From Candidatus Woesearchaeota archaeon (GTDB lineage Archaea; Nanobdellota; Nanobdellia; Pacearchaeales; GW2011-AR1), in contig CAYQOY010000001.1 of the NCBI GenBank assembly GCA_964419275.1, positions 15,218 through 79,217 on the forward strand: a stretch of DNA of 64,000 nucleotides, given 5' to 3'. The notes below the pieces were generated by a model. The model made no database searches, was not told the DNA's origin, and worked only from the letters and a program-made list of their open reading frames with translations. Position numbers and translations under genes: made by a program. Of the stretch, positions 3,059-29,762 are shown one piece after another; positions within the stretch are counted from its first letter, which is position 1, and each line of letters opens with the position of its first letter.

Positions 3059-3142
3059 GCGGAAATGCCGGAGTGGTCAAACGGGCTGGATTAAGGCTCC
3101 AGTGGCTTAGTGCCTGCGAAGGTTCGATCCCTTCTTTCCGCA
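3059..3142 (+). tRNA. tRNA-Leu (class II, long variable arm); anticodon reads AAG in the canonical fold
   Basis: 84 nt. Acceptor stem GCGGAAA/TTTCCGC. D-stem CCG/CGG with a 10-nt D-loop. Anticodon stem CTGGA/TCCAG with loop TTAAGGC. Variable arm GGCTTAGTGCC. T-arm GAAGG-TTCGATC-CCTTC. No encoded CCA. Confidence 0.85.
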
Positions 3143-4493: not shown

Positions 4494-5054
4494 TTAATCA
4501 CAAGTGTACGCACAATTTGGATGATTCAATAATTCTTCAAGACTTAGATGAGAAAGGTAATACGCAACTCCGTCTGCAATTCTAACAATTCTTGGTTGGC
4601 TTCTTAAGTAAAAATTAGGGTCCGGAGTTTTTGTGTAATTTTTTGCTTGAATCTCAGCAAAATGCAAATAAGAAAGATGATGGATTAATTCTTTATCATA
4701 TCCCTCACAAGGTTCTCCGTCAAAATGAACTCCCAAATGGGCTTTTTCAAAGGTCTTTGTTTCTAAAAACTTTCTTATCAGCTTAGGAGCTTCATATCCT
4801 AAATTACAATGCTTATGTTTATACTTTTCATTTATTAAAAGTGCGAATAGATATTCTCCGCCTTGATTCAACCAGTCTAATGCTCCTTCTCTATCTCTTT
4901 TTGTGTGAAATTCTCTAGGAACTCCATCTTCAAAATCATAAGAAAACGCTGCAACAACGATCTCAGGTTTGTCTGGCTGATTTACTTTGCCTCGTTGGGC
5001 TTCATCTAACCCGCATATCAAATACGAATTTTCTGTTTGAATTTCTTCAATCAT
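4494..5054 (-). CDS. hypothetical protein with an RNase-HII-like N-terminal motif (ICGLDEAQRGKV)
   Basis: 186 aa. Only the N-terminal DEAxRG-like segment resembles RNase HII (IAGIDEAGRGPV). Downstream motifs are not in canonical order. Start overlaps the upstream recombinase-domain ORF by 8 bp (translational coupling). Confidence 0.3.
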   Translation of the reverse strand: MIEEIQTENSYLICGLDEAQRGKVNQPDKPEIVVAAFSYDFEDGVPREFHTKRDREGALDWLNQGGEYLFALLINEKYKHKHCNLGYEAPKLIRKFLETKTFEKAHLGVHFDGEPCEGYDKELIHHLSYLHFAEIQAKNYTKTPDPNFYLRSQPRIVRIADGVAYYLSHLSLEELLNHPNCAYTCD

Positions 5055-5589
5055 TTTGTTTTTCGTTTTTTAATCTTTCAAGTTTGTTTTGAACATGATT
5101 GAATAACGTTGAAGAAATCAAAGCGGGATGATTTCCTTCGTAAATCTGATTGTTGAATTTAACTTTCCCTATATAAGTAAAATTAGTAAGTATTTTTTTC
5201 AATCCATTGACAGAAAGGTTGTGCCTTTGCGCGAGCTGTCTTAAACTAATATTTTCATTTAGAAATTCCTGGAAGATATCTTCAATTTCATTTTTGTTTT
5301 CTGCTGGAATAAGCTTTTTATCTTCCATTTTATAACCGAATGGAACTCGTGACATTACTTTTCCTTTAGATGCTTGAGAAATCATTCCTTTTTTTTGTTT
5401 TTCACCAACTCCCGCATATTTTCTAAAGGAGTCTAGAACACTTCCGTTTATTTTCTCTGAGATATACTCTTGGAATTTTTCGGAATTATTTGGGGAAAAA
5501 TAATGACAGATGTCACAAAGGTAAACTTGGAACTTTTCTTTGTTTTTTTCAGAATCATGCCCACATTTCACACATCTTTTTCCACTCAT
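5047..5589 (-). CDS. zinc-ribbon plus serine-recombinase 'Recombinase'-domain protein lacking the catalytic resolvase domain
   Basis: N-terminal CVKCGH...CDICHY zinc ribbon. Central VPFGYK...IEDIFQEF...SLRQLAQ..N...G..W....V..IL.N..Y.G pattern typical of the Recombinase domain of large serine recombinases. Confidence 0.45.
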   Translation of the reverse strand: MSGKRCVKCGHDSEKNKEKFQVYLCDICHYFSPNNSEKFQEYISEKINGSVLDSFRKYAGVGEKQKKGMISQASKGKVMSRVPFGYKMEDKKLIPAENKNEIEDIFQEFLNENISLRQLAQRHNLSVNGLKKILTNFTYIGKVKFNNQIYEGNHPALISSTLFNHVQNKLERLKNEKQND

Positions 5590-6491: not shown

Positions 6492-7343
6492 TCAGGTTTT
6501 ATCCTCGGAATTCAACTTTAAGTCGTCGATTGGGCTTTTAATCTTCTTTAATTCTTCTGAAGAAACATGCGCATAAAGCTGGGTTGTGCTAAGATTGCTA
6601 TGCCCTAATAGTTCTTGGATTAATCTTATATCTACTTTATTTTCCAAGAGATGTGTTGCAAAGCTATGCCTTAGCGTGTGGGGATGAACATCTTTCTTTA
6701 TTTTAGCTGCAATTGCTGCTCTTTTGATTATTTTTTGAATGTTTCTTTCTGTAATTTTTCCGTTTCTTCCGCTGAAAAGGTAAATCTCTTTTCTTTGTTT
6801 TTGATTTTCTGCTTGCTGTTTAAGCTCTTCAATTAAAAATTCCGGGATATTAAACAGCCTATCTTTTCTCCCTTTTGCTTGTCTAGCATATCCTGTTTTT
6901 TCTTCAAAAGATAAATCTGAAACTTTTAGGTTAGTTAGTTCAGATACCCGAAATCCGCATGCGTAAAGTAAACTTACAATTAGTTTGCTTTTTTTATTAG
7001 TTATTAAATCAATAAGTCTCGTGACTTCTTCTTTTGTTAAAACGGGGGGAATCCTCCTTTCTTTTTTTGGACGTTTTATGCCCTCAGTAATATCCTCTTT
7101 TAGCAAATTAGAGTAAGCGTATTTTACTGCAGACAAAAAAACAATTATTGAGGGGGAAGACATATTGGATATCTTAGACGCAATAAAGTTCTTAACATCC
7201 TGATTTTTGACTTGTTCTGGGTTCTTACTGCAGAAGTCTAGAAGTTCACTGTTCGCTCTTACATAATTCCTAATAGTATGCTCAGAATTTTTTGAAATCT
7301 TAAGCTCTACTTTTAGTTTATCTAAAAATTCTTGCTTGTTCAT
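6492..7343 (-). CDS. xerA: tyrosine recombinase XerA-like (integrase family)
   Basis: C-terminal catalytic signature: ...ARQAKGRKDR..., HTLRHSFATHLLENKVDIRLIQELLGHSNLSTTQLYAHV (R, HxxR, H, nucleophile Y). Confidence 0.85.
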   Translation of the reverse strand: MNKQEFLDKLKVELKISKNSEHTIRNYVRANSELLDFCSKNPEQVKNQDVKNFIASKISNMSSPSIIVFLSAVKYAYSNLLKEDITEGIKRPKKERRIPPVLTKEEVTRLIDLITNKKSKLIVSLLYACGFRVSELTNLKVSDLSFEEKTGYARQAKGRKDRLFNIPEFLIEELKQQAENQKQRKEIYLFSGRNGKITERNIQKIIKRAAIAAKIKKDVHPHTLRHSFATHLLENKVDIRLIQELLGHSNLSTTQLYAHVSSEELKKIKSPIDDLKLNSEDKT

Positions 7344-11755: not shown

Positions 11756-12592
11756 TCAAAGATCTCTTAGTTGAATTATTGCGTTAAGTGAAGCAATTTT
11801 CTTTAAATTTTCGGAAATAGAAATTTTAATTTGTTTATTATTTACTTTTTCTTTTTGAATAGGGACACCTTTTTTTATCAATTTACCGACGTAATCTCTT
11901 ACAGAACTTTCACTAAGATTCAATTTCTGAGATAAACTTCGGTAATCTGAAAATCCTTGCTCTTCATCATACTGGTAAATTGCAGAAAAAACCAAAAACT
12001 CTTGCTCGGTAAGTTCTTTGAACTTTAACCTAACTTCTTTTTTTAGACTATCTAAGGAATTTAAAATTTCTAAAGCATTGTTAAGAGACTTGCTTTCTTT
12101 GTTGAATCCCCTTGTTTCAGAGATAAACCCTTCTTTTTGTGTCTGTTGGTTTGTCTGTTGGTTTGTCTGTTTGTCTGTTGGAACCCCTCCATTTCCAGTG
12201 GAAAAGCTCATATTTTGAGCCTTAGAAGGCTTAAAAGGGTAATTATCTGTTGGATTATCTGTTGGACTTGTTGGGTTAACCTGTCTGTTTGTCTGTTTTT
12301 CTAAGTTATCTGTCGGACTATCTTTTGAATGCTCTGAATACTTTTCAGAACAATTTTCGTCTAATCTTTCAGGAGAATACTGAAATTTAGAGTTGTATTC
12401 TGCACTATTTAAGTTAAAACCTTCTTTGGAAGAATAATCTGATTTCTTAAGGTAACTCTCTTCTTGATTAAGAAGAATCTCATCAAGTAAATCTCTTAAC
12501 TGATTTAATTGAAATTTAATCAAATCCATCTCGTTTCTCAAAGAAGCGATATCTGTTTTAACCTTGTCAAATGCCTCTTTGATTGGTTCCAT
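11756..12592 (-). CDS. coiled-coil protein with low-complexity linker and C-terminal winged-helix domain
   Basis: N-terminal IASLRNEMDLIKFQLNQLRDLLDE coiled coil. PTDNPTDN / QTNQQTNQQTQ repeats. C-terminal LTEQEFLVFSAIYQ...SDYRSLSQKLNLSESSVRDYVGKLIKKGV wHTH. Confidence 0.5.
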   Translation of the reverse strand: MEPIKEAFDKVKTDIASLRNEMDLIKFQLNQLRDLLDEILLNQEESYLKKSDYSSKEGFNLNSAEYNSKFQYSPERLDENCSEKYSEHSKDSPTDNLEKQTNRQVNPTSPTDNPTDNYPFKPSKAQNMSFSTGNGGVPTDKQTNQQTNQQTQKEGFISETRGFNKESKSLNNALEILNSLDSLKKEVRLKFKELTEQEFLVFSAIYQYDEEQGFSDYRSLSQKLNLSESSVRDYVGKLIKKGVPIQKEKVNNKQIKISISENLKKIASLNAIIQLRDL

Positions 12593-13414: not shown

Positions 13415-13681
13415 TTATTGAATCTTTTTATATGCTTCGTAAGACTTACTGGAAAGTTTCCATCTAGCTCTTTTTTTATAACTAACTCCCTGAGGGTTTT
13501 TTTTGATTTGATCAACTAATCCTTTTTTAGATAAATCTATTAAAAGCCTTTTCACAAATTCCTCATCTCTAGCGATTTCTTTGGAAATTTGAGAGATGAA
13601 TAAGGGGCGAGGGTTATTCTCAAATAAAAGTGCCAGGATTTGTTCAGAAATTTTGGTTTTCTTTTCTTCAGAGATTCGCAT
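13415..13681 (-). CDS. small winged-helix DNA-binding protein (putative transcriptional regulator)
   Basis: 88 aa. ISQISKEIARDEEFVKRLLIDLSKKGLV recognition-helix-like segment followed by a basic wing (KKRARWKL). Confidence 0.45.
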   Translation of the reverse strand: MRISEEKKTKISEQILALLFENNPRPLFISQISKEIARDEEFVKRLLIDLSKKGLVDQIKKNPQGVSYKKRARWKLSSKSYEAYKKIQ

Positions 13682-13765
13682 AGGGCTTTAATACCGAATA
13701 ACTTTTTAAACGTATGTTTGATATTAAGAAACTCTTTAAACCAATTTCATCTAAGATTAAATGGA

Positions 13766-14812
13766 ATGAATCTTGAATTTAACTCTGGAAAAAAAGAAGA
13801 CGCTCAAAAATTTATAAGAAAACTGAAAAAAGAAGATAATCTTGCAATAATCAGCCACAACGATTTAGATGGGCTTGCTTCAGCTAAAATTTTAGAAAGA
13901 GTTAGTTCTCCTAGGTTAATTGAATTAGTTTCTTATGATAAAATCTCCGGGTTAGTGCCTTCTCTTAAAAAAAATAAAATAAACAAGATTATTTTTTCAG
14001 ATTTGTCTTTAGATTTTCCTGGAAGCCTTTCTAGCTTTGAATCTCTTGCAGAAATATTAGTTATAGACCATCATCAATTCAAAAACGACCTTAACTCAAA
14101 TAAAACTACTTTCTTGAATGCCCAGGGATATTGTGCTTCGTATATTTGTTATTCTCTTTTCTCAGAAAATGCAAATTTAAAGAACTTAGAATGGCTTGTC
14201 GCTCTTGCTTCTTTATCAGACTGGCTTTATTCAAAGAATGTTGATTGGATTAAACAAGTTTATGAAAGCCAGGGAGAAACATTTGAATTAAATGAAATTC
14301 AAAAAGGAAAGTTTTGGGAAAGTGTTTTAACAGTTTCGGACGGATTAATTTACTTCAAAGATAACCCGACAAAAGCTTACGAATTAATTAATTCCGAAAA
14401 ATTTGATTTAAAAGAAATAACCCCTTATGTTCAGAAAGTCAGGCAAGATTTGGATTTTAATTTAGATAGATTTGAAAAAGAAAAAGAGCCTATTCCCGGA
14501 GGATTTTTTTATGAAATGAAATCTGAATATGATCTGAATTCTAGATTCGCTTCTTTGATTAGTGGAAAAACACCTAATGAGACTTATGTTATTTCTACTA
14601 AGAATCATACCCTTTACAGAATCTCTGCAAGAAGAAGCGACGGAAAAAGGGACATGTCCGAGTTAGTTAAGTATCTCACTGAAGATTTAACTTTGATCAA
14701 TGCCGGAGGGCATGTTGCAGCAGCAGGATGTAATGTTCTTGAAACAGAGTATATTTCTTTTAAAGAAAAATTGAAACAGATTCCCGAAGAGATGTTTGTT
14801 TTGAAAAAATAA
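13766..14812 (+). CDS. DHH/DHHA1 family phosphoesterase (NrnA/RecJ-like nuclease)
   Basis: Motif I ISHNDLDGLASA, motif III LVIDHHQF, DHHA1 GGHVAAAG. Start set at the internal ATG 13766 because the longer ORF overlaps the convergent wHTH gene. Confidence 0.7.
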   Translation: MNLEFNSGKKEDAQKFIRKLKKEDNLAIISHNDLDGLASAKILERVSSPRLIELVSYDKISGLVPSLKKNKINKIIFSDLSLDFPGSLSSFESLAEILVIDHHQFKNDLNSNKTTFLNAQGYCASYICYSLFSENANLKNLEWLVALASLSDWLYSKNVDWIKQVYESQGETFELNEIQKGKFWESVLTVSDGLIYFKDNPTKAYELINSEKFDLKEITPYVQKVRQDLDFNLDRFEKEKEPIPGGFFYEMKSEYDLNSRFASLISGKTPNETYVISTKNHTLYRISARRSDGKRDMSELVKYLTEDLTLINAGGHVAAAGCNVLETEYISFKEKLKQIPEEMFVLKK

Positions 14813-15318: not shown

Positions 15319-15624
15319 TTAAACTAAATCTTCTTCAGAAACGATCACAAAGTCCCCTATTGCAATAATAGAGTTATAAGGGATAAGTATGTCATTTGTG
15401 TGGGTTCTTTCAAGGTTAAGATTCTTGACATAAGCAGTGGAGTCTTTAACTACAAGGTTAATTAACTCTCCAGACTTAGTTTCAAAAGTAATATCCTTTA
15501 CAGCACCTAGTCTTTTTCCCTCTTTTGTGACAATCATCTTGCCCAAAATCGAATTAAATGGGTTTTTTTCTTGTTGCATGATTGATTGAAAGGGAATTGA
15601 TATATAAATTTTTCTATAACTCAA
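15319..15624 (-). CDS. PRC-barrel domain protein
   Basis: 101 aa. GKMIVTKEGKRLGAVKDITFETKSGELINLVV matches the PRC-barrel core pattern. Confidence 0.45.
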   Translation of the reverse strand: MSYRKIYISIPFQSIMQQEKNPFNSILGKMIVTKEGKRLGAVKDITFETKSGELINLVVKDSTAYVKNLNLERTHTNDILIPYNSIIAIGDFVIVSEEDLV

Positions 15625-15755: not shown

Positions 15756-16004
15756 CCCCCTCACCCCTCAATTTCCAGTAGAAACATTTAAAAAAGAAAA
15801 ATTGATTTTTATTTTTTATTTTTTATTTATAAAATTATATATTATATATTATATATATTATAATAGTATAATAATATAAAGTTAATCGGTTTTCCATAAG
15901 AAATCTTGGTGTCTTTCTTATTCAGTAGTTATAATCCTTTATATAATATTTTAAGTTTTTTCGTTGGAAAAATTTATAATGAAGATGTTCCACTGGAAAT
16001 GAAC
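15756..16004. promoter_or_regulatory. oriC: replication origin (oriC): two inverted ORB (origin recognition box) elements flanking an AT-rich DUE, immediately upstream of orc1/cdc6
   Basis: Right ORB 15978-16004: GTTCCACTGGAAATGAACGTGTGGGAG. Left ORB (bottom strand of 15756-15788): TTTCTACTGGAAATTGAGGGGTGAGGGG. Both match the archaeal ORB core TTCCAGTGGAAAC followed by a G-string. Between them lies ~190 bp of >85% AT (ttatatattatatattatatatattataat). Confidence 0.65.
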
Positions 16005-16046
16005 GTGTGGGAGATATTATAAAAGTAAAATAAATAAAAAAATAAA

Positions 16047-17276
16047 ATGGGAGTAATTTTAGACGAAATTTTTGAATCTTTTGATAAAAATAAAATCTTC
16101 AAAAATAAAGAAGTTTTACAATCTAATTACAAACCTGAAGATATTCTTCATAGAGATGAGCATATCAAACAAATTGCTTCTATTCTTGCACCGGTGTTAA
16201 GAGGAGAAAAATGCAGTAACCTTTTCCTTTATGGAAAAACCGGAACAGGAAAGACCCTTTCAATTCAATATGTTCGAGACGAGATGCTTAAACGTGTTAA
16301 AAAAGAAGCAGAATTTATTCTCAAGATAGAATATCTTAATTGTAAATTAAAAAAGATCTCAGATACAGATTATAGAATTTTAGCAGAGTTAATTAAAAAA
16401 TTAGGGGGGCAAGTTCCCGACACAGGGCTTCCAACAGAAAGAGTTTATAATAAGTTCATCAATTTAATCGATTCGGAAAAGCAAGTCATTGTTCTTATTT
16501 TAGACGAAATCGATCAGGTTGTTAAAAAGATTTCTAGCGATTTTCTGTATAACTTAACGCGTCTTAATAACGAACTTTCTAAATCTAAACTATGTATTGT
16601 GGGAATAAGTAACGATCTAACTTTCTTAGATGAAATAGACCCCAGAGTTAGGAGTTCTCTTTCTGAAGAAGAGATTGTTTTTTTACCCTATAATGCAATT
16701 CAGCTTCAAGAAATTTTAAGAAAAAGGGCTTCAGAGGCATTCAAGGAGAATGTTCTTCAAGAAGGAGTTATTGAAAAGTGTGCTGCTTTTTCTGCTAAAG
16801 GTTATGGGGATGCTCGAAGAGCATTAGATTTGTTAAGAGTTGCAGGAGAACTTGCAGAGAGAGATAATTCTGAAAAAATAACTTTTAAGCATATAGATGA
16901 AGCAAATAAAAAATTAGAAAGTGACAAAGTTTTAGAAATAATTGAGTCTGAGCCGAAGCCTTTCCATTACGTTCTTAATTCAATAATTCAATTAACCGAG
17001 CAAAGAGTAAAAGAGGGGAAATCTTCTCATGAACCCATTTTTACCGGAGACGTTTATAATAACTATGCAGATTTTTGCAATAGAAATAAAATAGAAGTTC
17101 TAACACAAAGGAGAGTCTCAGATATAATTCAAGAATTTGATATGTTTGGAATAATCAATGTAAGGGTTGTTTCAAAAGGGAGAGGAGGAAGAATGAGAGA
17201 AATTAATTTAGTATTGCCTCAAGAAGTTATCTCTAAGGTAAAAGAGATTATTAGAAATTCAGTAGATTTTAGATGA
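16047..17276 (+). CDS. orc1: Orc1/Cdc6 replication initiator
   Basis: Walker A LYGKTGTGKT, Walker B VLILDEID, sensor ISND. C-terminal winged helix. 409 aa. Confidence 0.9.
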   Translation: MGVILDEIFESFDKNKIFKNKEVLQSNYKPEDILHRDEHIKQIASILAPVLRGEKCSNLFLYGKTGTGKTLSIQYVRDEMLKRVKKEAEFILKIEYLNCKLKKISDTDYRILAELIKKLGGQVPDTGLPTERVYNKFINLIDSEKQVIVLILDEIDQVVKKISSDFLYNLTRLNNELSKSKLCIVGISNDLTFLDEIDPRVRSSLSEEEIVFLPYNAIQLQEILRKRASEAFKENVLQEGVIEKCAAFSAKGYGDARRALDLLRVAGELAERDNSEKITFKHIDEANKKLESDKVLEIIESEPKPFHYVLNSIIQLTEQRVKEGKSSHEPIFTGDVYNNYADFCNRNKIEVLTQRRVSDIIQEFDMFGIINVRVVSKGRGGRMREINLVLPQEVISKVKEIIRNSVDFR

Positions 17277-17321: not shown

Positions 17322-18905
17322 ATGGATGAAAAAGAAATTTTGAAATTTTGTTTGAAAAAAGGGATTCTTTTAGACAAAGAAGTTCTTAGTTTACTTAGTG
17401 AAGCCCTTGAGTCTGAAGCAGAAATGAAAGTTATTGAAAAAATAAGAGAAAATAGCCAAAAAAAGTTTATTACGAAAAATGTTTTCTGCGAGAATATAAA
17501 GCAAGTAAATCAGGTTTTTTCTTCTCTTTCTGAAGATAAAAAGAAAAAACTTGAAACGCTTAAGATTAAATTAGGGTTAGAACTGGAAATTTCTAAAGAA
17601 TCCGTCTCTTTGCAAAAAGCAACCCCGGAAAGTAGAGAATTTGCAGAAAAAAAAGATTTCGATGAAGATGAAAAAGTTAAAATCAAATCTTTGATCTCTT
17701 GTGTAAACAAAAAACCAGAAGTTGACGATTTTGTGAAATTCTTTAAAAGCAGGCTTACAAAAATGAGAACCGTTCTTCAAACTCATGCGAATTTAAAAGA
17801 TTTGGTTTCAATCAATAAACTTTCTGGAAATAGACACAAGGTATGTATTATCGGAATTGTTAGCTCTAAAAAAACAACCCAAAATAAGAACATTCTTTTA
17901 GAAGTTGAAGATTTGACAGGGAAAACAAGAGTATTAATTAATCAGAATCGTCCGGGACTTTACGAGAAAGGGGAAGAGATAGCTTTAGATTCGGTTATAG
18001 GGGTCGTTGGCGCAGGAAATGGAGAGATTATTTTTGCGGAAGATGTTATTTATCCAGATGCGATGATCACTGAAAGAAAAAGAGCGCCAACAGAAGAGAT
18101 TGCTGCATTTATTGGAGATGTTCATTACGGAAGTAAGCTTTTTATGAAAGAAAACTTTGTGAAATTTATAGAATACCTTAATGATGTTTCTTCTCCTAGC
18201 TCAGAAGCATCTAAAATAAAGTATCTTTTTGTTGTCGGAGACTTGGTCGCAGGAGTAGGAATTTATCCAGAGCAAGAGCCAGACTTAGAAGTCAAAGACT
18301 TAGAAAAACAATTTCAAGGCATCGCGGAACTTCTTGGAAATATTAGAAAAGACATAACAATTATTCTTTCTCCGGGAAATCACGACGGAGTTAGATTGAT
18401 GGAACCTCAGCCTCTTTTTGATAAAAGATACGCGGAACCTTTGTATAACTTAAAAAATGTGATCATCACGACAAATCCTGCTTACGCCACTATCGCTTGT
18501 TCAAAAAAGTTTTCTGGTTTCGAGGTTTTAACTTATCATGGATATTCTTATCCTTTTTATGTCGACAAAATTCCTTCTTTAATTAAAGTAGATGCAATAA
18601 ATGCCCCGGATAAAATAATGGCTTATCTTTTGAAAAATCGTCATCTTGCTCCAACCCACGCTTCTGTTCAATATTACCCTCTGGAAGAAGACCCTCTAGT
18701 TATAGAAAAAGTTCCAGATATTTTTGTTTCAGGGCACATTCACAAATCTGCTGTTTCATATTATAATAATATTCTAATGATTTCTTGTTCTGCTTGGGAA
18801 TCGATAACCGCTTTTCAGGAGAAAATGGGAAATAAACCAGATTTTTGTAAAGTCCCTATTGTAAATTTAAAAAATCGAACAGTTAAAATTTTGGATTTTG
18901 AATAA
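17322..18905 (+). CDS. polB: DNA polymerase II (PolD) small subunit DP1
   Basis: OB-fold region plus calcineurin-like phosphoesterase motifs GDVHYG, GDLVAG, GNHD, GHIH. 527 aa. Confidence 0.85.
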   Translation: MDEKEILKFCLKKGILLDKEVLSLLSEALESEAEMKVIEKIRENSQKKFITKNVFCENIKQVNQVFSSLSEDKKKKLETLKIKLGLELEISKESVSLQKATPESREFAEKKDFDEDEKVKIKSLISCVNKKPEVDDFVKFFKSRLTKMRTVLQTHANLKDLVSINKLSGNRHKVCIIGIVSSKKTTQNKNILLEVEDLTGKTRVLINQNRPGLYEKGEEIALDSVIGVVGAGNGEIIFAEDVIYPDAMITERKRAPTEEIAAFIGDVHYGSKLFMKENFVKFIEYLNDVSSPSSEASKIKYLFVVGDLVAGVGIYPEQEPDLEVKDLEKQFQGIAELLGNIRKDITIILSPGNHDGVRLMEPQPLFDKRYAEPLYNLKNVIITTNPAYATIACSKKFSGFEVLTYHGYSYPFYVDKIPSLIKVDAINAPDKIMAYLLKNRHLAPTHASVQYYPLEEDPLVIEKVPDIFVSGHIHKSAVSYYNNILMISCSAWESITAFQEKMGNKPDFCKVPIVNLKNRTVKILDFE

Positions 18906-21900
18906 AATGGAAACAGAAACATATTTTCATGATTTTGAAAAAGAAGTAAGGGTTGCGTACGCGATCGCAGACGTCGCAAGAAAAAAAGGATTGGACCCTG
19001 TTGATAAAATTGAAATACCTTTGGCAAAAAGTCTTGCGGAAAAAACAACGGGGTTGATAGCAACAATATATCCTCAGCTTACTGATTCCGGAGTTGTTCA
19101 ACGAATTCTAGATTTAGAAGAGCTTTATGGAAAATTGGATTCTGCTGTAGCATTTAAACTTGCAGAAGAAGTAGCCAAACAAAAATTTTGTACTTTCTCG
19201 AATCAGTTAGAAGCGATCGAAGCAGGGATTAGAATGGGGTTTGCTTACATCACCCTAGGAGTTGTTTCTTCTCCTATTGAAGGATTCACAGGAATCAAGA
19301 TAAGAAAAACTCGCAACGGAAAAGATTATTTTGAAGTATTTTTCTCTGGCCCAATCAGAAGTGCAGGAACAACCGCTTCTTGCATGGTTTTAATGTTAAT
19401 TGATTACTTAAGAGAGCTCTTCGGATATGCTAAATATGACCCTAGTGAAGATGAAATTAAAAGATATGTTACAGAAAATCACGATTATCATGAGAGGGTA
19501 ACAAATCTTCAGTATATGCCTACAGATGAAGAAATTGTTTTTTTGGCAAAAAACATTCCGATCCAGATTTCCGGGGAGCCAACAGAAAAGATTGAAGTTT
19601 CAAATTATAAAAATCTTGAAAGAATTGAAACAGATTTTGTCAGGGGAGGAATGTGCTTGATTTTTTCAGAGGGACTCGCTCAAAAAGCGGCAAAAGGATT
19701 TAGACTTTTAAAGGGAGTAAAGAAAAAAGATTTTCAAACAACTGGTTTTGATTTTTTAGAACAATATATCGAGCTTCATGATAAAAGAAATTATGGTAAG
19801 AACGTTTCAACAGACACCAGACCAACTTATATTAAAGATATCGTTGCGGGAAGGCCTATTTTTGGGCACCCTTCTCAAAGTGGAAGTTTTAGATTTAGAT
19901 ACGGAAGAAGTAGAGTATCTGGTTTTTCCGCTTCTTCGGTTCATCCAGCTACAATGGGAATCAGTGATAATTTTATTGCTATTGGGACTCAACTTAAAAT
20001 TGAAAAACCAACAAAAGGAACAGTCACCACTGTTTGCGATTTATTAGAAGGACCTATTGTAAAACTTTCCAACGGAAGTGTTAGAAAACCAAAAACTCTT
20101 GAGGAATCTAAAAAAATTTATCCAGATGTAACAGAAATAATTTATCTTGGAGATCTATTAATGCCTTTTAGCGACGTTGCAAATAGAAACGCAGTATTGC
20201 TTAAACCAGGATACGTTGAAGAATGGTGGGAATTAGAATTAAAAGAAAAATTCAAAGAAAAAAACCCGGAGTTAGATTTTAACACCTTGAATATAAATCC
20301 TTTTGAGATTAGTTTAGACCAAGCAATTGAAATCAGCAGAGAATATGGAATTCCTCTTCACCCAAAATTTATTTTATTCTGGACTCAGATTTCATTAGAA
20401 CAATTTTTAGGTTTGCTAGATTGGTTAAGTTATGCAAGACTTGCTGGAAAAATAATTCTTCCTTACAACAAATCTGAAAAAGAAAAATTTGAGTTAGGAA
20501 AGCGGGCATTAGAAGTATTGGGGATTGAACATGAAGTTACCTTAGAAAATGTGGTTTTAGATAAAGATGAAAGTAACATTTTGTTTTTGAACTTAGGTTT
20601 AGACTTGGAAATTTTAAATCAAGAGGGGCATTTATTGCAAGAATTTTTAGATAAATCTAAATTTGAAACAACTAAGATTAATCCAGAAGATAACTCTGAG
20701 GTTAAGAAGACTGTTTTAGAAATTATCAATTCTGTTAGCTTTTTTGTAATTAAAGATAAAGCAGGAGATTTTATTGGAGCAAGAATGGGGAGGCCTGAGA
20801 AATCTAAGCTTAGAAAACTTACAGGAAGCCCAAACACCTTGTTCCCAGTTGGAAAAGAAGGAGGGAGGCTTAGAAATGTTTATGATACTCTTAAAGCAGG
20901 GGAAATTAAGGGAGAATTTCCAATTTATTATTGTGGGAATTGTAATAAGGAAACAATTTATCCTTCTTGTGAAGATTGCGGAACAAAATGCAAAAAAATG
21001 TATTATTGTAAAGAGTGTGATTCTAAAAAAACAGAAGTTTGCCCAGAGCATAAAAATTGTCGTCCTTATGCTTATCAGTCATTAGACATACAGCATTATT
21101 TTCAAAAAGCAAAAGAAAAAATTTCCATAAAAGATGAAGAAATGCCTACATTAATTAAAGGGGTCAGAGGACTTTCGTCTGGGGGAAAACAAACAGAAAA
21201 TCTTGCAAAAGGAATCTTAAGAGCAAAATATGGTTTGCAGGTGAATAAAGATGGAACAATCAGACTAGATGCAACAGAATTGCCTTTAACTGCATTTAAA
21301 CCAAAAGAGATTTTTGTAAGTGTTGAAAAACTGAGAGAGCTGGGATATACAGAAGATATTTATGGAAAGCCCTTGGAAAATGACAACCAAATTTTAGAAT
21401 TAATGCCTCATGACATTCTGCTTCCTTGCTCTCCGGAAGGGACCGATGAAAAAGCAGATGATGTTTTCATTAAAATTGCTCAATTTATGGACGAACTTTT
21501 AGTTAAATTTTATGGATTACAGCCTTTTTACAAAGTTAAGAAAAGAGAAGATTTGGTAGGGAAATTAGGTGTTTGTATGGCCCCCCATAATTGCGCAGGA
21601 GTTGTTTCCAGGATAATTGGATTTTCTCACGCTCAAGGATTATATGCGAGTCCCTATATGCATGCTGCAATTAGAAGAGATTGTGATGGAGATGAAGTTG
21701 CCGTAATGCTTCTATTAGATGTTCTTTTGAACTTCTCAAGAGAATTTTTACCTGGGCATAGAGGTGGAACCCAAGATGCTCCTTTAGTTTTAAATGCTAA
21801 AATTAATGCAGGAGAAGTTGATGATCAAATTTTAGATTTAGAAATGGTTTCAGAATATCCTCTAGCTTTGTATCGTGCGGCAGAGCAGAAGAAACATTCA

Positions 21901-22437
21901 TCAGAAGTTTCTGTTATGAATGTTAAACTTGCACTTAAAGAACATAGAGATCCTTTTGTTAAAATTGGATTTACTCACGATACCTCAAATTTTAATCAGG
22001 GAGTTATGTGTTCTTCATATAAGTTATTTGGAACTATGTCTGAGAAAGTTCAACACCAGATGATGCTTGTTGAAAAACTAAGGGCTGCAGATACTTCAGA
22101 TACAGTTCGGTTAATTATTGAACGCCACTTTATCAGAGACTTGAAAGGTAATCTAAGAAAATTCTCAACACAGGAATTTAGGTGCGTTAAATGCAATGAA
22201 ATTGTAAGAAGGCCTCCTTTAACCGGAAAATGCCCTGCTTGCAAAGTTGGAAAATTAATATTTACAATAAACGAGGGTGGAATCAAGAAATATCTTGAGC
22301 CTGCTCTTGAGCTTGCAGAGAAATATCACCTTTCAGTTTATCTTCGCCAAAATTTAGAGATTACTAAAAGACAGGTGGAAAGTATTTTTGGAAAAGAGCC
22401 AGAAAAACAGGCAGGATTGGAAAGTTGGTGTAAATAA
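18898..22437 (+). CDS. polC: DNA polymerase II (PolD) large subunit DP2
   Basis: 1179 aa. Conserved DP2 blocks, e.g. GGMCLIFSEGLAQKA, CDGDEVAVMLLLD. C-terminal Cys clusters (CGNCNKETIYPSCEDCG; CVKCNE...CPACK). 8-bp overlap with DP1. No intein-sized insertion. Confidence 0.85.
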   Translation: MNKMETETYFHDFEKEVRVAYAIADVARKKGLDPVDKIEIPLAKSLAEKTTGLIATIYPQLTDSGVVQRILDLEELYGKLDSAVAFKLAEEVAKQKFCTFSNQLEAIEAGIRMGFAYITLGVVSSPIEGFTGIKIRKTRNGKDYFEVFFSGPIRSAGTTASCMVLMLIDYLRELFGYAKYDPSEDEIKRYVTENHDYHERVTNLQYMPTDEEIVFLAKNIPIQISGEPTEKIEVSNYKNLERIETDFVRGGMCLIFSEGLAQKAAKGFRLLKGVKKKDFQTTGFDFLEQYIELHDKRNYGKNVSTDTRPTYIKDIVAGRPIFGHPSQSGSFRFRYGRSRVSGFSASSVHPATMGISDNFIAIGTQLKIEKPTKGTVTTVCDLLEGPIVKLSNGSVRKPKTLEESKKIYPDVTEIIYLGDLLMPFSDVANRNAVLLKPGYVEEWWELELKEKFKEKNPELDFNTLNINPFEISLDQAIEISREYGIPLHPKFILFWTQISLEQFLGLLDWLSYARLAGKIILPYNKSEKEKFELGKRALEVLGIEHEVTLENVVLDKDESNILFLNLGLDLEILNQEGHLLQEFLDKSKFETTKINPEDNSEVKKTVLEIINSVSFFVIKDKAGDFIGARMGRPEKSKLRKLTGSPNTLFPVGKEGGRLRNVYDTLKAGEIKGEFPIYYCGNCNKETIYPSCEDCGTKCKKMYYCKECDSKKTEVCPEHKNCRPYAYQSLDIQHYFQKAKEKISIKDEEMPTLIKGVRGLSSGGKQTENLAKGILRAKYGLQVNKDGTIRLDATELPLTAFKPKEIFVSVEKLRELGYTEDIYGKPLENDNQILELMPHDILLPCSPEGTDEKADDVFIKIAQFMDELLVKFYGLQPFYKVKKREDLVGKLGVCMAPHNCAGVVSRIIGFSHAQGLYASPYMHAAIRRDCDGDEVAVMLLLDVLLNFSREFLPGHRGGTQDAPLVLNAKINAGEVDDQILDLEMVSEYPLALYRAAEQKKHSSEVSVMNVKLALKEHRDPFVKIGFTHDTSNFNQGVMCSSYKLFGTMSEKVQHQMMLVEKLRAADTSDTVRLIIERHFIRDLKGNLRKFSTQEFRCVKCNEIVRRPPLTGKCPACKVGKLIFTINEGGIKKYLEPALELAEKYHLSVYLRQNLEITKRQVESIFGKEPEKQAGLESWCK

Positions 22438-24629: not shown

Positions 24630-27600
24630 ATGAGAAATAAAAATTTCATAAAGGCGTTTGTTTTTCTTTTTGTAGTTGTTGTTTTGCTATTATCTGTTAA
24701 TAGCATTATCACTTTCACCGGAAAAGTTATAACTGAAAGCCAATCCTCCGTACAAAATTCTAATTTCATGCTGGATTCTTTCAGAAGGACAAATCTCGAG
24801 AGCATTAATTCAGTTAATTTGCATGGAGAAATTCCTTCTTCTGTAACTCAAATTAATATGAATACTTTTCAAGAAGGAAATCTTTTTGAAACCGAGTCGC
24901 AAGAGCCTTCTTTGAATTATTCTGGATTTATTGTTGAACTAAAAGAAGAGCCAAGAGTTAAGAAAAGAGTTGAATTAGAAGAATTAGCAAAAAAGAATCA
25001 AGAAATCATAGACACATATCCAGTTTATAGTCCAATTAAGGTGTTAAATTTAATTTCTGGTGTAGATGAAAAAAATTTAGACATTTTCATCGCAAGCGCT
25101 CAACAAAGACAAATCTCTGAGAAAGAAAAAGTTAAGTCTGAGGTTGTTAATCTTGTTCAAGAAAAAATTAATCAAGGAAAAAATCCTTTAACGGGAAATG
25201 CAATATTCGAGGATACACAAATAAACCCGGAGAATATTATTACTGCAGAGTTTCAAGAACTTTTCAATGGTTTTGCAATAAATGTTGATGAAGAAACAGC
25301 AAGAGAAATTGGAGAAATTGAGGGCGTTAAAAGAGTTTGGCCAAATATGATTGTTCAAGCAACTTTAATGGATTCTGTTCCATTGATTCAAGAAGGAATT
25401 CCTTCAGGACAATTAGATTTCGAGGGAAATGATTGTACTATTTCGAGAAAAGAATGCTTAACTGGAAAAGGTGTTAAAATTGCGATACTGGATACGGGTG
25501 TTGATTACACTCATCCAGATTTAGGGGGATGTACTCTGGAGCAAGTTCTAGCTGGAACTTGTGAAAAAGTTATAAGCGGGCAGAATTTTGTTTGGGAAAA
25601 TGGTTTTTTATATCCCAATAAATTTTTAGATGATTATGGTCATGGTACACACTGTGCTGCAACTGCCGCAGGTGAAGGTGTTTTAAAAGGAGTTGCCCCG
25701 GAAGCAAAAATCTTAGCATATAAGGTACTTAATTCTGAAGGTAGTGGGACGTATGGATGGATACTTGGGGGAATTGAAAAATCGATAGAAAATAATGCAG
25801 ATATTTTAAGTTTAAGTTTTGGATCAATTTATGGAAATCCAGATGATCCACTTTCTCAAGCAGTAGATAATGCTGTTTTGGTGGGCAAGGTTGTTGTCGT
25901 TGCTGCAGGAAATGATGGAGAGGATGGGAAAGAGACTATTGGAAGCCCAGGAGTAGCAAGAAGAGTAATAACCGTGGGAGCAGTCACTAAAAATGATTTT
26001 CTTGCATATTTTTCTTCAAAAGGACCCGTAAGATGGAAAAATTCTGAAGGAATCGAGCAAGAATTGGTTAAACCAGATGTTCTTGCACCAGGAGTTTCTA
26101 TTTGCGCAGCGCAAGCTTCTCAAGATAAAATCTGGCAAGAAGTTTACACTTATTATGATGAAAATATTCACTGCATAGATGAAACCCACATATCTATCTC
26201 TGGAACATCTATGGCAACACCTCATGTTGCAGGAACAGCAGCATTATTGAAACAAAAAAATATGAGCTTAAGCCCAGAAGAAATAAAACAGATTCTAAAA
26301 ATGAATTCAATAGACTTGGGGTTAAGTATCTTTGAGCAAGGGATGGGGCGGATTAATGTTTCAAAATCTTTAAGAGAAGAAGTTCCTCTTGTTTCTGTTA
26401 ATGTCTTTCTTTCGGGCGATATCCTTAGATTTCAGGGATCTGTTCAAAGTTTAGAACCACGAAAATATTACTTAGAATACTTTAATAGATACTCCTCTCT
26501 TTGGGAGTCTGTATCTTCTGAGTTAACCTCTGGAGAGTTTGATTTAGAAATGAGCAAGGGACATTTTAATAATGAACGAGGATTATTTAGAATTAAGACT
26601 CTCTTTCCTAATAAAAAAGAATTTTATTACTACTTCTTTAGCCCTTATTTAAACAACTTTGATATTGAACGAGTAGGGCTGATTAGCCCTTATATGACAT
26701 CTCCCCTTGAGCAAGTAACCTTGGATGTTAACACTGATTATATCTATCCTTCTTACGACATTGAAATTAAAAAACCTTTTGAAGAAGACTGGGAGATAAT
26801 TTATTCTTCTTCAGAGCCATTAAAAAAAGGGCAGACAATAACCTTTCAAACAGGCAATTTTTTAGCAGGTAAATATACTTTGAGACTGGTTGCAAAAAGA
26901 GCAGATTCAACTAAGGTGATTAGTCCTTCTTTTTTTGCAGTGTTCATTGAAATGAGTGCCGAGGATAAGATCAAGCCCCTCAATTTTAAGGTTTATCCTC
27001 TCTCACCTTCTTTTTTAAAAGGAGACGATAACTATCTAGTTCTTGCAGAAACCGCAGAAACCTCTGAAATGGATGGTGTTCCTCGTTGGAAGATTCATGT
27101 CTTTAAAGGAGATGAAGAAATCTCTTTGATAGATGAATTAAAAAATAAAAATTTTCATCCTCTTTTAATCTATCCTCTGTCTGATTACGGACATATAGGG
27201 TTTTTACCTTTTTTTAAAGCGGAAGAATTATCTCTTTTCTTGTTAAGTGAAGTAGATGATACTCAAAGATATTCCAGTTATGATAGCTATCTCCGCTTGG
27301 GAGAAGTAAACTTGCAAGGGGAATATCTAGATAGTTGGCCTTATCATCTAGTGGAGGGACTATTAAATCAGTTCTGGTTTAAGCAGTTAATCAAATCCCC
27401 TGAAAAAAATTTCTTTTGGGGTTTTTATGGAAATAACTCTTTTTTCAAGGAATATATGGCTCTCCCTCCGGGAGAGAAGAGCTCAGTTTATTGTTTATAT
27501 ACGAACAAGTACATTCAAAGCTTAGAAAAAGAATTTTTTATTTTTGATAACTCCGGAAATTTAATTAAAAAAATTTCTGATAAAATTTTTAAAGAAGGAG

Positions 27601-29762
27601 AAATCGATTTTGATGATTGTAGTTATAGGTTGGCACATTATAGCATTTATTTCAAAGATAATGAAAGTGAATATCTTCTAAGTTCTTTATGGAGAAGGTC
27701 TAATTCCGATGAAGATCTTTTAGAACCGGGCCAAGTTTCTGTTTGGGATGCGGGAGAGCTTACTTTAGATTTGGTGGATTTAAAAGAAGGGAAAATTATA
27801 GCATCTAAAGAAATAAAAGAAGTGGGCGGAGACTGGATCGAGGCTTCTCCTAATCCTTTGGTTATAAATTCAAGTGGAGAAATTATCTTTGTTTTACCCA
27901 TAAACAAGCACCCTTCAGCAGGAGACGCGTGGTATCTTGATAATCAATCTTCAGAAATGTATCTATTAGATAAAGAACTGCAAATAATCAGAAAAACCAC
28001 TCCTGTTCGAGGTTATGTTTTAAGTACCGAACCCGTAGTCTTGGAACAAGATTCAAAAATATATCTTGTTGCAAGATATTATCGAGGAATTAGCAGACGT
28101 GACTTGAAAACTAAATTGATAATTTCTGATTTAGAGGGAAATATTGTTCGTGAATTTGGGCAAGAACAATCAAGCACCTCTGAATTAACTACGTTACAAT
28201 CGAGGGCTATAGTTACGGGGGACATTAACAATGATGGAATTACAGAGATAATTACTTTTATTGGAGAAGTTGATTCGGAAGGCTCTTCGTGGATCAAAAT
28301 CTATAATTTTTTTGGGGAATTAGTTCGGGAAATAGAAATCCCCAACCTTTATTTTGCTAGTATCACGGATCAAATAAGTTTAGGAGATTATGATAAAAAT
28401 GGTAAACTAGATTTATCTCTTATTCTAAATGAGTATTATCGAGATGGTCCTTTTGGTAAAGAGGGAAATTCTACATTATATCGTTTTGATTTAGGTTATG
28501 ACTATCTTCCTGAAAATCTTTATTGGCCAGACTTTTACGACTCTCAAAATAGCAGATATTACAACTCTGTTCAAAGTCAAATTCAACTACCGTTTTTAGA
28601 TGTAACTGCTCCAATTTATTCAGACGCAAATCATAGCAATACAACTACAGGACAAGCAACTGAGTTTTCTGTTCTCTGGGGGGATGAAACTTCTTTAAAT
28701 CCAAATGGAAAATATATCTTTTCAACTAATAACACGGGAATTTGGATAAATGATTCTGAAGTTAAATTTTCCATGACTCCAATCTGGGCGAATGTCACAA
28801 AAACTTTGGTTTCTCAAGTAGGAGTCACAATAGGTTATAGATGGTATGCTTCAGACAACGCAAGCAACTGGAACTCCACTCCAATTTATTCTTTTGTTAC
28901 AGCTCCTTCTTCACCGATTCCAATTATAGATAAAACAGCTCCAACTTATTCAAATGTAGGACATCAAATAAGTCTTAGTAATTTAAAGTCTACAACCATA
29001 AAATTCTTCTCCTACTGGAACGATGAAACTTCTTTGAATCCAAATGGACAGTATATCTTTTCTACAAATGCTTCAGGTGTATGGAAGAATAATTCTCCAA
29101 TTAAATTTTCAATAACTCCTAGTTGGGCAAATAGCACTTTGACCATTAGCACTGGTGCAAAGGTAATTGGTTATAAATGGTACGCTTCAGATAATGCAAG
29201 TAATTGGAATTCCACCCAAGTTTATTCTTTGAAAGTTGGTAATATTGTACTTCCTCCAGAGAATCCTGTTCCTGTTGAGCCACCTAAAGAAACTCCGAAT
29301 CCTGTAGAACCACCAATAGAAGAAGAACCTATTCCAATAAAACCAACTGAACCAATTAAACAATCCGGAGATGTTTATCCTCCAACATATATGAATGTAG
29401 TTCATTTAAACACTTATGCAGGGCTTCCAGCAGCGTTTTCAATAACCTGGATAGATGAAACTTCATTAACACCTAATGGAGAATATATCTTTTCAACAGA
29501 TAACTCTGGGCAATGGGTAAATGATACTCCTGTTAAATTTGGAACATCTACTTCTGCAATTGTTGGAAAAAGCATAACTGTCCCGGTAACAAAAATATTA
29601 ACTTCTCAATCTGGAAAAACAGTAAGTTATAGGTGGTATGCTTCAGATAATTCTGGAAACTGGAGAGCAACCGAAACTTATTCTTTCGTTACAAAAACTA
29701 ATTGGAGAACTCTTTTGAGCAGAGTCACGGGAAACATTATAAGATTCTTCTTTAAAGAATAA
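24630..29762 (+). CDS. giant secreted subtilisin-like (S8) serine protease with FG-GAP-like repeats and a triplicated ~100-aa C-terminal domain
   Basis: Signal/anchor helix. Catalytic triad VKIAILDTGVD (D), HGTHCAATAAG (H), GTSMATPHVAGTAALL (S). DINNDGITEI and GDYDKNGKLD repeats. Three C-terminal copies of ...WxDETSLxPNGxYIFSTxNxGxWxN...YxWYASDNxxNW..T.xYS. Pro-rich linker PVPVEPPKETPNPVEPP. Many N-x-S/T sequons. Confidence 0.85.
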   Translation: MRNKNFIKAFVFLFVVVVLLLSVNSIITFTGKVITESQSSVQNSNFMLDSFRRTNLESINSVNLHGEIPSSVTQINMNTFQEGNLFETESQEPSLNYSGFIVELKEEPRVKKRVELEELAKKNQEIIDTYPVYSPIKVLNLISGVDEKNLDIFIASAQQRQISEKEKVKSEVVNLVQEKINQGKNPLTGNAIFEDTQINPENIITAEFQELFNGFAINVDEETAREIGEIEGVKRVWPNMIVQATLMDSVPLIQEGIPSGQLDFEGNDCTISRKECLTGKGVKIAILDTGVDYTHPDLGGCTLEQVLAGTCEKVISGQNFVWENGFLYPNKFLDDYGHGTHCAATAAGEGVLKGVAPEAKILAYKVLNSEGSGTYGWILGGIEKSIENNADILSLSFGSIYGNPDDPLSQAVDNAVLVGKVVVVAAGNDGEDGKETIGSPGVARRVITVGAVTKNDFLAYFSSKGPVRWKNSEGIEQELVKPDVLAPGVSICAAQASQDKIWQEVYTYYDENIHCIDETHISISGTSMATPHVAGTAALLKQKNMSLSPEEIKQILKMNSIDLGLSIFEQGMGRINVSKSLREEVPLVSVNVFLSGDILRFQGSVQSLEPRKYYLEYFNRYSSLWESVSSELTSGEFDLEMSKGHFNNERGLFRIKTLFPNKKEFYYYFFSPYLNNFDIERVGLISPYMTSPLEQVTLDVNTDYIYPSYDIEIKKPFEEDWEIIYSSSEPLKKGQTITFQTGNFLAGKYTLRLVAKRADSTKVISPSFFAVFIEMSAEDKIKPLNFKVYPLSPSFLKGDDNYLVLAETAETSEMDGVPRWKIHVFKGDEEISLIDELKNKNFHPLLIYPLSDYGHIGFLPFFKAEELSLFLLSEVDDTQRYSSYDSYLRLGEVNLQGEYLDSWPYHLVEGLLNQFWFKQLIKSPEKNFFWGFYGNNSFFKEYMALPPGEKSSVYCLYTNKYIQSLEKEFFIFDNSGNLIKKISDKIFKEGEIDFDDCSYRLAHYSIYFKDNESEYLLSSLWRRSNSDEDLLEPGQVSVWDAGELTLDLVDLKEGKIIASKEIKEVGGDWIEASPNPLVINSSGEIIFVLPINKHPSAGDAWYLDNQSSEMYLLDKELQIIRKTTPVRGYVLSTEPVVLEQDSKIYLVARYYRGISRRDLKTKLIISDLEGNIVREFGQEQSSTSELTTLQSRAIVTGDINNDGITEIITFIGEVDSEGSSWIKIYNFFGELVREIEIPNLYFASITDQISLGDYDKNGKLDLSLILNEYYRDGPFGKEGNSTLYRFDLGYDYLPENLYWPDFYDSQNSRYYNSVQSQIQLPFLDVTAPIYSDANHSNTTTGQATEFSVLWGDETSLNPNGKYIFSTNNTGIWINDSEVKFSMTPIWANVTKTLVSQVGVTIGYRWYASDNASNWNSTPIYSFVTAPSSPIPIIDKTAPTYSNVGHQISLSNLKSTTIKFFSYWNDETSLNPNGQYIFSTNASGVWKNNSPIKFSITPSWANSTLTISTGAKVIGYKWYASDNASNWNSTQVYSLKVGNIVLPPENPVPVEPPKETPNPVEPPIEEEPIPIKPTEPIKQSGDVYPPTYMNVVHLNTYAGLPAAFSITWIDETSLTPNGEYIFSTDNSGQWVNDTPVKFGTSTSAIVGKSITVPVTKILTSQSGKTVSYRWYASDNSGNWRATETYSFVTKTNWRTLLSRVTGNIIRFFFKE

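Follow-up and report, generated by a model that had tools for sequence, protein, structure and literature searches.

A probable oriC1-type replication origin, with three origin recognition boxes and a conserved intragenic box nearby, in a Nanoarchaeota genome

The 64-kb stretch of DNA analyzed here (hereafter the window; contig CAYQOY010000001.1) comes from an uncultured DPANN archaeon and carries a cluster of origin recognition boxes (ORBs) upstream of an orc1/cdc6 initiator gene, an arrangement with counterparts in three described systems. In Pyrococcus abyssi and P. furiosus, the origin (oriC) is followed by cdc6/orc1, dp1 and dp2, in that order. It holds two long ORBs arranged as an inverted repeat, shorter mini-ORB-like boxes and two AT-rich stretches, and one further ORB occurs in a coding gene no more than a few kb from the origin (PMC1904270). 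That gene is dp1, which in Pyrococcus contains a cluster of ORBs that is kept in Thermococcales and to which Cdc6/Orc1 binds both in vivo and in vitro (PMC1904270). The oriC1 of Sulfolobus has three ORBs, including an inverted pair around an AT-rich duplex unwinding element (DUE), with orc1-1 adjacent, and Orc1-1 defines the widely conserved oriC1 (PMC12141716). In haloarchaea, as exemplified by Haloarcula hispanica and Haloferax volcanii, inverted ORBs with their G-strings outermost surround the DUE of oriC1, orc1 is adjacent and dp1 is nearby; in H. hispanica, the left end of oriC1 carries a C-run and the right end a G-run (PMC3936714). A literature search found no paper pairing the term "origin recognition box" with DPANN, and as far as that search reached, origin anatomy in the phylum is undescribed. 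In a 2026 preprint, orc1 serves merely as the point to which 208 Nanobdellota genomes are rotated (bioRxiv 10.64898/2026.05.13.725050).

The boxes, AT-rich stretches and gene neighbourhoods just listed for the three systems, apart from the location of the intragenic ORB in dp1, have a likeness at the window locus. A first-pass annotation of this DNA had called the arrangement Pyrococcus-like, and the gene order oriC-orc1-dp1-dp2 does match. The locus differs from Pyrococcus in having three boxes only, where the latter has many mini-ORBs, and in carrying its intragenic ORB upstream, in a winged helix-turn-helix (wHTH) gene, rather than in dp1. Two of the boxes enclose a TATA-like box and keep a fixed distance of about 98 nt, and the host, at 33% G+C, is a mesophilic DPANN archaeon; both are further differences from Pyrococcus. 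A short conserved block within the DUE is reminiscent of the ucm of Sulfolobus. A difference from Sulfolobus is that PolD genes follow orc1 here; Sulfolobales are not known to have PolD. When compared with haloarchaeal oriC1, the locus has neither the elongated G-string peculiar to halophiles nor the G-rich inner inverted repeat, and its intergenic region is much shorter.

From left to right, the locus is composed of an inverted ORB (ORB-L), the DUE, an ORB-like box (ORB-M), a promoter-like segment, a second full ORB (ORB-R) and orc1 (Table 1). The euryarchaeal ORB consensus is GTTCCAGTGGAAAC-AAA----GGGGG (PMC1868953), and ORB-R keeps both its core and its G-string at the correct spacing. ORB-R is also nearly identical, with equal spacing, to ORB1 of P. 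furiosus, which reads GTTCCAGTGGAAATGAAACTCTGGGGGG on the reverse strand and binds Cdc6/Orc1 in vitro (PMC1904270). The G-strings of ORB-L and ORB-R, the two full inverted ORBs, are directed outward from the DUE, the polarity also seen in H. hispanica oriC1. A strict pattern that combines core and G-string (TYCYANNGGAAAYN8GRGNG) matched twice in the 64 kb, at ORB-L and ORB-R, and had no match in 100 shuffles. A looser, 21-nt family pattern (TYCYANNRGAAAYNNNNGKGT) produced four matches, as compared with 0.01 expected; these were ORB-L, ORB-M, ORB-R and a site at 12183-12203, designated ORB-c and described below. A core-only search with TTCCAGTGGAAAC, allowing up to three mismatches, returned 45 matches (22 expected) and was abandoned; because core-only searches are this noisy, the extension of the core is needed. 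With the two extended patterns, chance is excluded as the source of the ORB matches. The first-pass annotation had reported two inverted ORBs upstream of orc1, and both strings it quoted are present in the sequence. The top-strand box, given there as 15978-16004, is in fact located ~9 nt higher at 15987-16013, the spacer between the two boxes measures 203 bp instead of ~190 bp, and ORB-M had been missed. ORB-like copies scattered elsewhere, which would have spoken against an origin, were not found, since the pattern is restricted to the locus in the window and in 80 related loci.

The element between ORB-L and ORB-M contains the least stable DNA of the window. Its A+T content is 92.5% at 15785-15890 and 96% at 15786-15886, and no 100-mer in the 64 kb is less stable than the latter interval (z 5.6). 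The least stable 60-, 100- and 150-mers are all found at the DUE (z 5.0-5.6). An initial description of the entire spacer between the outer boxes as a nearly pure A/T unwinding element is accurate for the left 106 bp (15785-15891) and breaks down for the remainder, which holds ORB-M and a TATA-like box; A+T is 81% at 15921-15987. This right part looks like the orc1 promoter. The TATA-like element is the probable promoter of orc1, and the conserved TTTTTTCGTTGG is a possible transcription start region, located between the TATA box and ORB-R. Conserved blocks are also present inside the DUE, namely ATTTAAAAAGAAA beside ORB-L (15785-15800) and TATATTATATAGTATATA (15830-15862); these could be TATA-like elements, or could correspond to the ucm of Sulfolobus. 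A search for an intergenic RNA gene gave no Rfam match at gathering thresholds, and at E<=1 returned only a meaningless miRNA match.

Conservation of the locus was analyzed by scanning species-representative genomes, which yielded 80 loci whose Orc1 is 70-93% identical to that of the window; counts out of 81 include the window itself. Within the 700 nt upstream of orc1 in the related loci, the density of the family pattern is 2.3 per kb, an enrichment of ~40-fold over the 0.059 per kb (45 matches) observed in the remaining 768 kb. All 45 of these other matches are 1-5 kb upstream of orc1, in the region of the wHTH gene that bears ORB-c. An ungapped block of ~125 nt reaching from ORB-M to ORB-R aligns in 70/81 loci, with the consensus TTCCAt..GAAAT..aGGtGTttTTCTTttTtAGTaGT.ATAAt..TTTATAtAA ... 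TTTtCca..ggAAa. The start-to-start spacing of the two boxes is 96-99 nt, and a TATA box resembling TTTAWAWA is present in 66 of the 70 modules. The inverted ORB-L with its C-string is kept in 49 loci, followed by a TTTAaAAA block, a T-rich segment and then a TATATTATATA-rich stretch, and the first ~80 nt of the DUE are conserved among relatives. ORB-L and ORB-M are 81-574 nt apart (median 231), with a median A+T of 0.89, and the longer versions owe their additional length mainly to simple repeats; at 108 nt, the distance in the window is among the shortest. ORB-R ends 34 nt before orc1 in the window and is found 16-340 nt upstream of the orc1 ATG in relatives. We then took the closest distinct species (locus L004) as the reference for identity comparisons, with third codon positions of orc1 as a neutral proxy. 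Identity to this locus is 97% for the DUE, 100% for ORB-M, 96% for ORB-R and 86% for ORB-L, as compared with 63% for the orc1 third codon positions and 70% for the left flank. As judged by these alignments, the origin core is evolving far more slowly than neutral sites. In three contigs from other samples that encode an identical Orc1, the 320 nt upstream are identical as well.

The AT-rich, simple-repeat-laden spacer appears to be a frequent assembly break point, for example at the (AAT)n runs of L011, L071 and L080. A contig end lies within 650 nt upstream of orc1 in 17 of the 80 related loci (L009, L018, L023, L028, L029, L034-L037, L043, L045, L056, L058, L064, L068, L074 and L079). One archaeal contig with an orc1 origin (L055; DATKUW010000042.1) is filed under a "Bacillota bacterium" metagenome-assembled genome (MAG), which is probably a binning error.

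The product of the adjacent gene scores above the cutoff of NCBIfam TIGR02928. Its closest solved structures are S. solfataricus (Sso) Orc1-1 (2qby_A; E 7e-96), which ranks first, and A. pernix ORC1 (2v1u_A; E 6.5e-83), and within its winged-helix recognition helix the segment TQRRVSDII matches Sso Orc1-1 residue for residue. By these similarities, the initiator is an Orc1-1 ortholog. Pfam searches bore out the earlier assignment of orc1/cdc6, dp1 and dp2 directly downstream of the boxes. The Orc1 homologs closest to it come from MAGs labelled Nanoarchaeota, Pacearchaeota or Woesearchaeota. Gene orientation also switches at the locus: 11 minus-strand and 7 plus-strand genes occur to the left of 15.9 kb, and 8 minus-strand and 33 plus-strand genes to the right; the best co-orientation split falls at 15.5-16.5 kb (Fisher p 0.003).

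From what was observed or computed, namely the identity and statistics of the motifs, the polarity of the boxes, the instability of the duplex, the conservation of the locus, the orthology of the initiator and the switch in gene orientation, we interpret 15756-16013 as the, or a, chromosomal replication origin, of the oriC1 type, of a Nanoarchaeota (Pacearchaeota/Woesearchaeota-like) genome; we place the probability of this interpretation at roughly 85%. By analogy with studied archaea, Orc1 binding, MCM loading, origin firing and autoregulation of orc1 would all take place here. In the mechanism that we propose, which is modelled on work in Sulfolobus, Aeropyrum and Pyrococcus, monomers of the Orc1-1 type would bind each ORB with fixed polarity, placing the winged helix on the TTCCA-NNN-GAAAT dyad and the AAA+/initiator-specific motif region on the G-string. 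With ORB-L in the opposite orientation to ORB-M and ORB-R, and with every G-string directed away from the centre, the sides carrying the winged helix would face the 106-bp, 93-96% A+T element at 15785-15891. In studied systems, ATP-bound Orc1 recruits MCM at the origin (PMC12141716); here it would recruit MCM onto the DUE, where the duplex would open. The rigid ~125-bp module of ORB-M, TATA box and ORB-R probably doubles as the promoter and operator of orc1. The probable promoter is flanked by initiator sites on both sides, and ORB-R separates the TATA box from the ATG, which suggests that occupancy by Orc1 would repress orc1.

Several points weigh against the origin interpretation. ORB-M is without a real G-run; because its G-string is weak, it resembles a mini-ORB. 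The minimum of the raw cumulative GC skew is at 2.3 kb, not at 15.9 kb; the skew follows the coding strand, and only 16 kb of the window lie to the left of the site. Since the coding strand dominates and so little sequence precedes the origin, GC skew is uninformative as a locator here. A comparison of skew at third codon positions between co-oriented and head-on genes was marginal (p 0.05 overall; p 0.65 for the left side). In some relatives, the G-string of ORB-R occupies the position of a Shine-Dalgarno sequence, and its conservation there could be partly translational. The G-string (GTGTGGGTG, GGTGGGAG) ends 4-12 nt before the orc1 ATG in L005-L010, L019, L021, L072 and L083, where it may serve both functions. 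Finally, the view is that of 64 kb, and any other origins or Orc1 paralogs of the genome would lie outside it.

We considered whether the boxes serve solely as operators for the transcription of orc1 and the divergent gene, bound by Orc1 or another factor, while replication starts elsewhere. The TATA-like box between ORB-M and ORB-R in nearly all modules, the position of ORB-R between that box and the ATG, and the fact that origin firing at the locus is proposed by analogy are what this explanation can draw on. It leaves the inverted third ORB unexplained, however, and gives no account of an AT-rich element that is the least stable of the window, lies between inverted boxes and is conserved at 97% against 63% for the neutral proxy. 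The gene-orientation switch is likewise unexplained. In addition, a locus with such a layout is an origin in every archaeon studied (PMC4010727, PMC12141716), and autoregulation and origin function are compatible with each other. We therefore regard a purely regulatory role as improbable. A dormant or secondary origin, with the main origin elsewhere as in multi-origin archaea, would fit the restriction of our view to 64 kb and the missing GC-skew turn at the site, but is more improbable still: genomes of the phylum are small (e.g., 0.84 Mb; bioRxiv 10.64898/2026.05.13.725050), the initiator is of the Orc1-1 type that defines the conserved oriC1, and strong purifying selection acts on the origin core in 70 genomes. 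A third explanation, chance matches in AT-rich intergenic DNA or a plasmid or viral replicon, can appeal to the fairly common occurrence of words like TTCCA and GGAAA in a genome of 33% G+C, as the 45 core-only matches illustrate, but is already refuted by the lack of any match of the extended pattern in shuffles, by a layout kept in 70 loci and by the confinement of the pattern in relatives to the surroundings of orc1. The chromosomal context of the window (5S rRNA, tRNA, XerA, a class I tRNA synthetase and ribosomal protein S13) also speaks against it.

The fourth match of the family pattern, ORB-c, lies inside a gene ~3.6 kb from the origin. The wHTH gene that contains it is always divergent from orc1 and is found 1.7-4.7 kb upstream of it; the usual gene order is wHTH, an 88-aa gene, a ~140-aa gene, the PRC-barrel gene and oriC. 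ORB-c was present in 52/52 loci in which the wHTH gene was found by its C-terminal domain. Within the box, codons are fixed to an unusual degree: Ser is TCC in 52/52 (background 6.5%), Gly is GGG in 51/52 (19%), Asp is GAC in 48/48 (22%) and Pro is CCA in 34/34, while equally conserved residues elsewhere in the gene use 2-6 codons. Substitutions in ORB-c alter the amino acid (T/I/S/N; Gly to Arg), and they affect those central positions at which the intergenic boxes, TTCCA-NN(G/A)-GAAAT, are variable too. The spacing of the G-string equals that of ORB-L. The encoded peptide, SxGNxGVPTD, is situated in a predicted disordered linker (AlphaFold 2 [AF2] predicted local distance difference test [pLDDT] <50). 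As far as these sequence comparisons go, the findings point to the DNA, and not the peptide, as the level at which constraint acts, and Orc1 is predicted to be a likely ligand of ORB-c.

In relatives, a (GACA)n tract directly follows ORB-c and encodes (TDRQ)n in every frame; in the window the tract is degenerate and consists of CCAACAGAC repeats (12130-12180 and 12240-12275). A slippage event of one unit would put the wHTH domain downstream out of frame; the assembled copies are all in frame. Our tentative interpretation is that ORB-c is an Orc1 site kept by selection on the DNA, which imposes SxGNxGVPTD(RQTD)n on a disordered linker across Nanoarchaeota and, together with (GACA)n, may form a distal origin-control element; we would put this at a little short of an even chance.

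Alternatively, and for ORB-c only, the box could be a conserved peptide motif (SxGNxGVPTDRQ) or a by-product of the microsatellite, and not an Orc1 site. This is a serious contender, although we rather doubt it. It is in keeping with the location of the box within the open reading frame in 52/52 loci, with the conservation of the peptide and with the possibility that slippage of the adjacent (GACA)n homogenises the sequence. The DP1 motif GNHD also shows that a mini-ORB-like string can arise accidentally. A peptide or microsatellite origin is harder to reconcile with rare codons fixed in ORB-c where other conserved residues of the gene use several, with amino-acid-changing variation at the very positions that vary in intergenic ORBs, and with a G-string spaced as in ORB-L in a linker of such low predicted order. 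Moreover, the pattern is limited in relatives to the DNA just before orc1 and to the stretch 1-5 kb upstream with the wHTH gene, and the Orc1-bound ORB cluster inside Pyrococcus dp1 provides a precedent for an intragenic site.

A Pyrococcus-like ORB cluster within dp1 was also considered. A recurrent TTCTCCTGGAAATCATGA in the DP1 genes of relatives encodes the phosphoesterase motif SPGNHD, and was rejected as an ORB because its neighbouring codons vary and it has no G-string, a judgement made by inspecting printed sequences and not by a formal codon count. In the window, the same motif gives the mini-ORB-like TTCTCCNGGAAAT at 18368-18380, and in relatives it is found ~+2.2 to +2.6 kb from the orc1 start; it is a coincidence at the protein level. 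A second origin at ORB-c was ruled out because no unstable DNA is nearby, a low-stability stretch near 12.2 kb not having been found. Nor did the wHTH protein match a known replication factor (Cdt1/WhiP, DnaD), as it gave only weak Pfam hits to DnaD_N/HTH_36, weak NCBIfam hits to Lrs14/LysM, and MarR-like folds when the AF2 model was compared with the Protein Data Bank (PDB) using Foldseek. It has 1367 homologs, and the named ones among the best 120 are almost all from DPANN (Nanoarchaeota, Pacearchaeota, Diapherotrites). The protein is best described as a generic wHTH regulator.

Table 1. Positions of the origin elements, the intragenic box and the adjoining genes in the window.
Feature	Coordinates	Strand	Remarks
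ORB-c host gene, 278 aa	11756-12592	-	coiled-coil/N-terminal helix, long disordered linker, C-terminal MarR/Lrs14-like wHTH (Pfam, AF2)
ORB-c, intragenic ORB-like box	12180-12205 (pattern match 12183-12203)	-	TTCCACTGGAAAT-GGA-GGGGTT; encodes FSTGNGGVPTDKQT
PRC-barrel gene	15319-15579	-	Pfam PRC; reads away from origin; own TATA box ~15600-15612
ORB-L, full origin recognition box	15756-15784	-	string TTTCTACTGGAAATTGAGGGGTGAGGGGG; core TTCTACTGGAAAT at 15771-15783; G-string GGGGTGAGGGGG
Duplex unwinding element (DUE)	15785-15891	no strand	starts with conserved block ATTTAAAAAAGAAAA; contains TATATATTATATATTATATATATT
ORB-M, ORB-like box	15892-15923	+	TTCCATAAGAAAT-CTTGGTGT-CTTTCTT; pattern match 15892-15912; also found as repeat D7
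Conserved AGTAGTTATAAT-CC-TTTATATAA	15924-15946	+	TATA-box-like element 15938-15946
Conserved TTTTTTCGTTGG	15956-15967	+	between TATA box and ORB-R; column conservation in 70 modules
ORB-R, full origin recognition box	15987-16013	+	string GTTCCACTGGAAATGAACGTGTGGGAG, read as GTTCCACTGGAAAT-GAAC-GTGT-GGGAG; G-string towards orc1
orc1/cdc6 initiator gene	16047-17276	+	Pfam Cdc6_lid, Cdc6_C, AAA
PolD small subunit DP1	17322-18905	+	Pfam Metallophos, DNA_pol_E_B
PolD large subunit DP2	18898-22437	+	Pfam PolC_DP2_N, central, catalytic domains; gene caller start 18907

Other features of the window were recorded as well. The promoter block of the PRC-barrel gene, aatatataaacttttctgt, is kept in relatives. 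A DHH/DHHA1 protein with weak similarity to archaeal RecJ/GAN is encoded at 13640-14812 (+), between the wHTH gene and the origin; this insertion is present in the window lineage and in the neighbours of L004, and is absent from typical relatives such as L007. A 5S rRNA gene (2830-2944, -) and a tRNA gene (3059-3142, +) are found ~13 kb to the left of the origin. A XerA-type tyrosine recombinase (6492-7343, -; NCBIfam NF040815 above cutoff) lies 9 kb from it, and a fragmentary serine-recombinase-like ORF occurs at 5047-5589. The largest gene of the window (24630-29762, +) encodes an S8 subtilase of the secreted type, 1710 aa long, which weakly matches the FG-GAP repeat.

Taken as a whole, the origin is very probably an ordinary, textbook example of the oriC1 type, like the origins of Pyrococcus and Sulfolobus, and among the by-products of the analysis, the conserved intragenic ORB is of greatest interest. 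The oriC1/Orc1-1 system would thus be essentially unchanged in these reduced genomes. The window and its 70 relatives give a precise, testable model of the origin, in which three ORBs are combined with a DUE whose start is conserved and with a promoter module of fixed spacing. Such a model is useful for anchoring and rotating DPANN genomes, and supports estimates of growth rate from metagenome coverage. If ORB-c is an Orc1 site, its possible roles include looping to oriC, titration of Orc1 in the manner of E. coli datA, and coupling of wHTH expression to initiator occupancy. It would then be a clean example of a cis-element that constrains protein sequence, and would extend the sole earlier precedent, the ORB cluster in Pyrococcus dp1.

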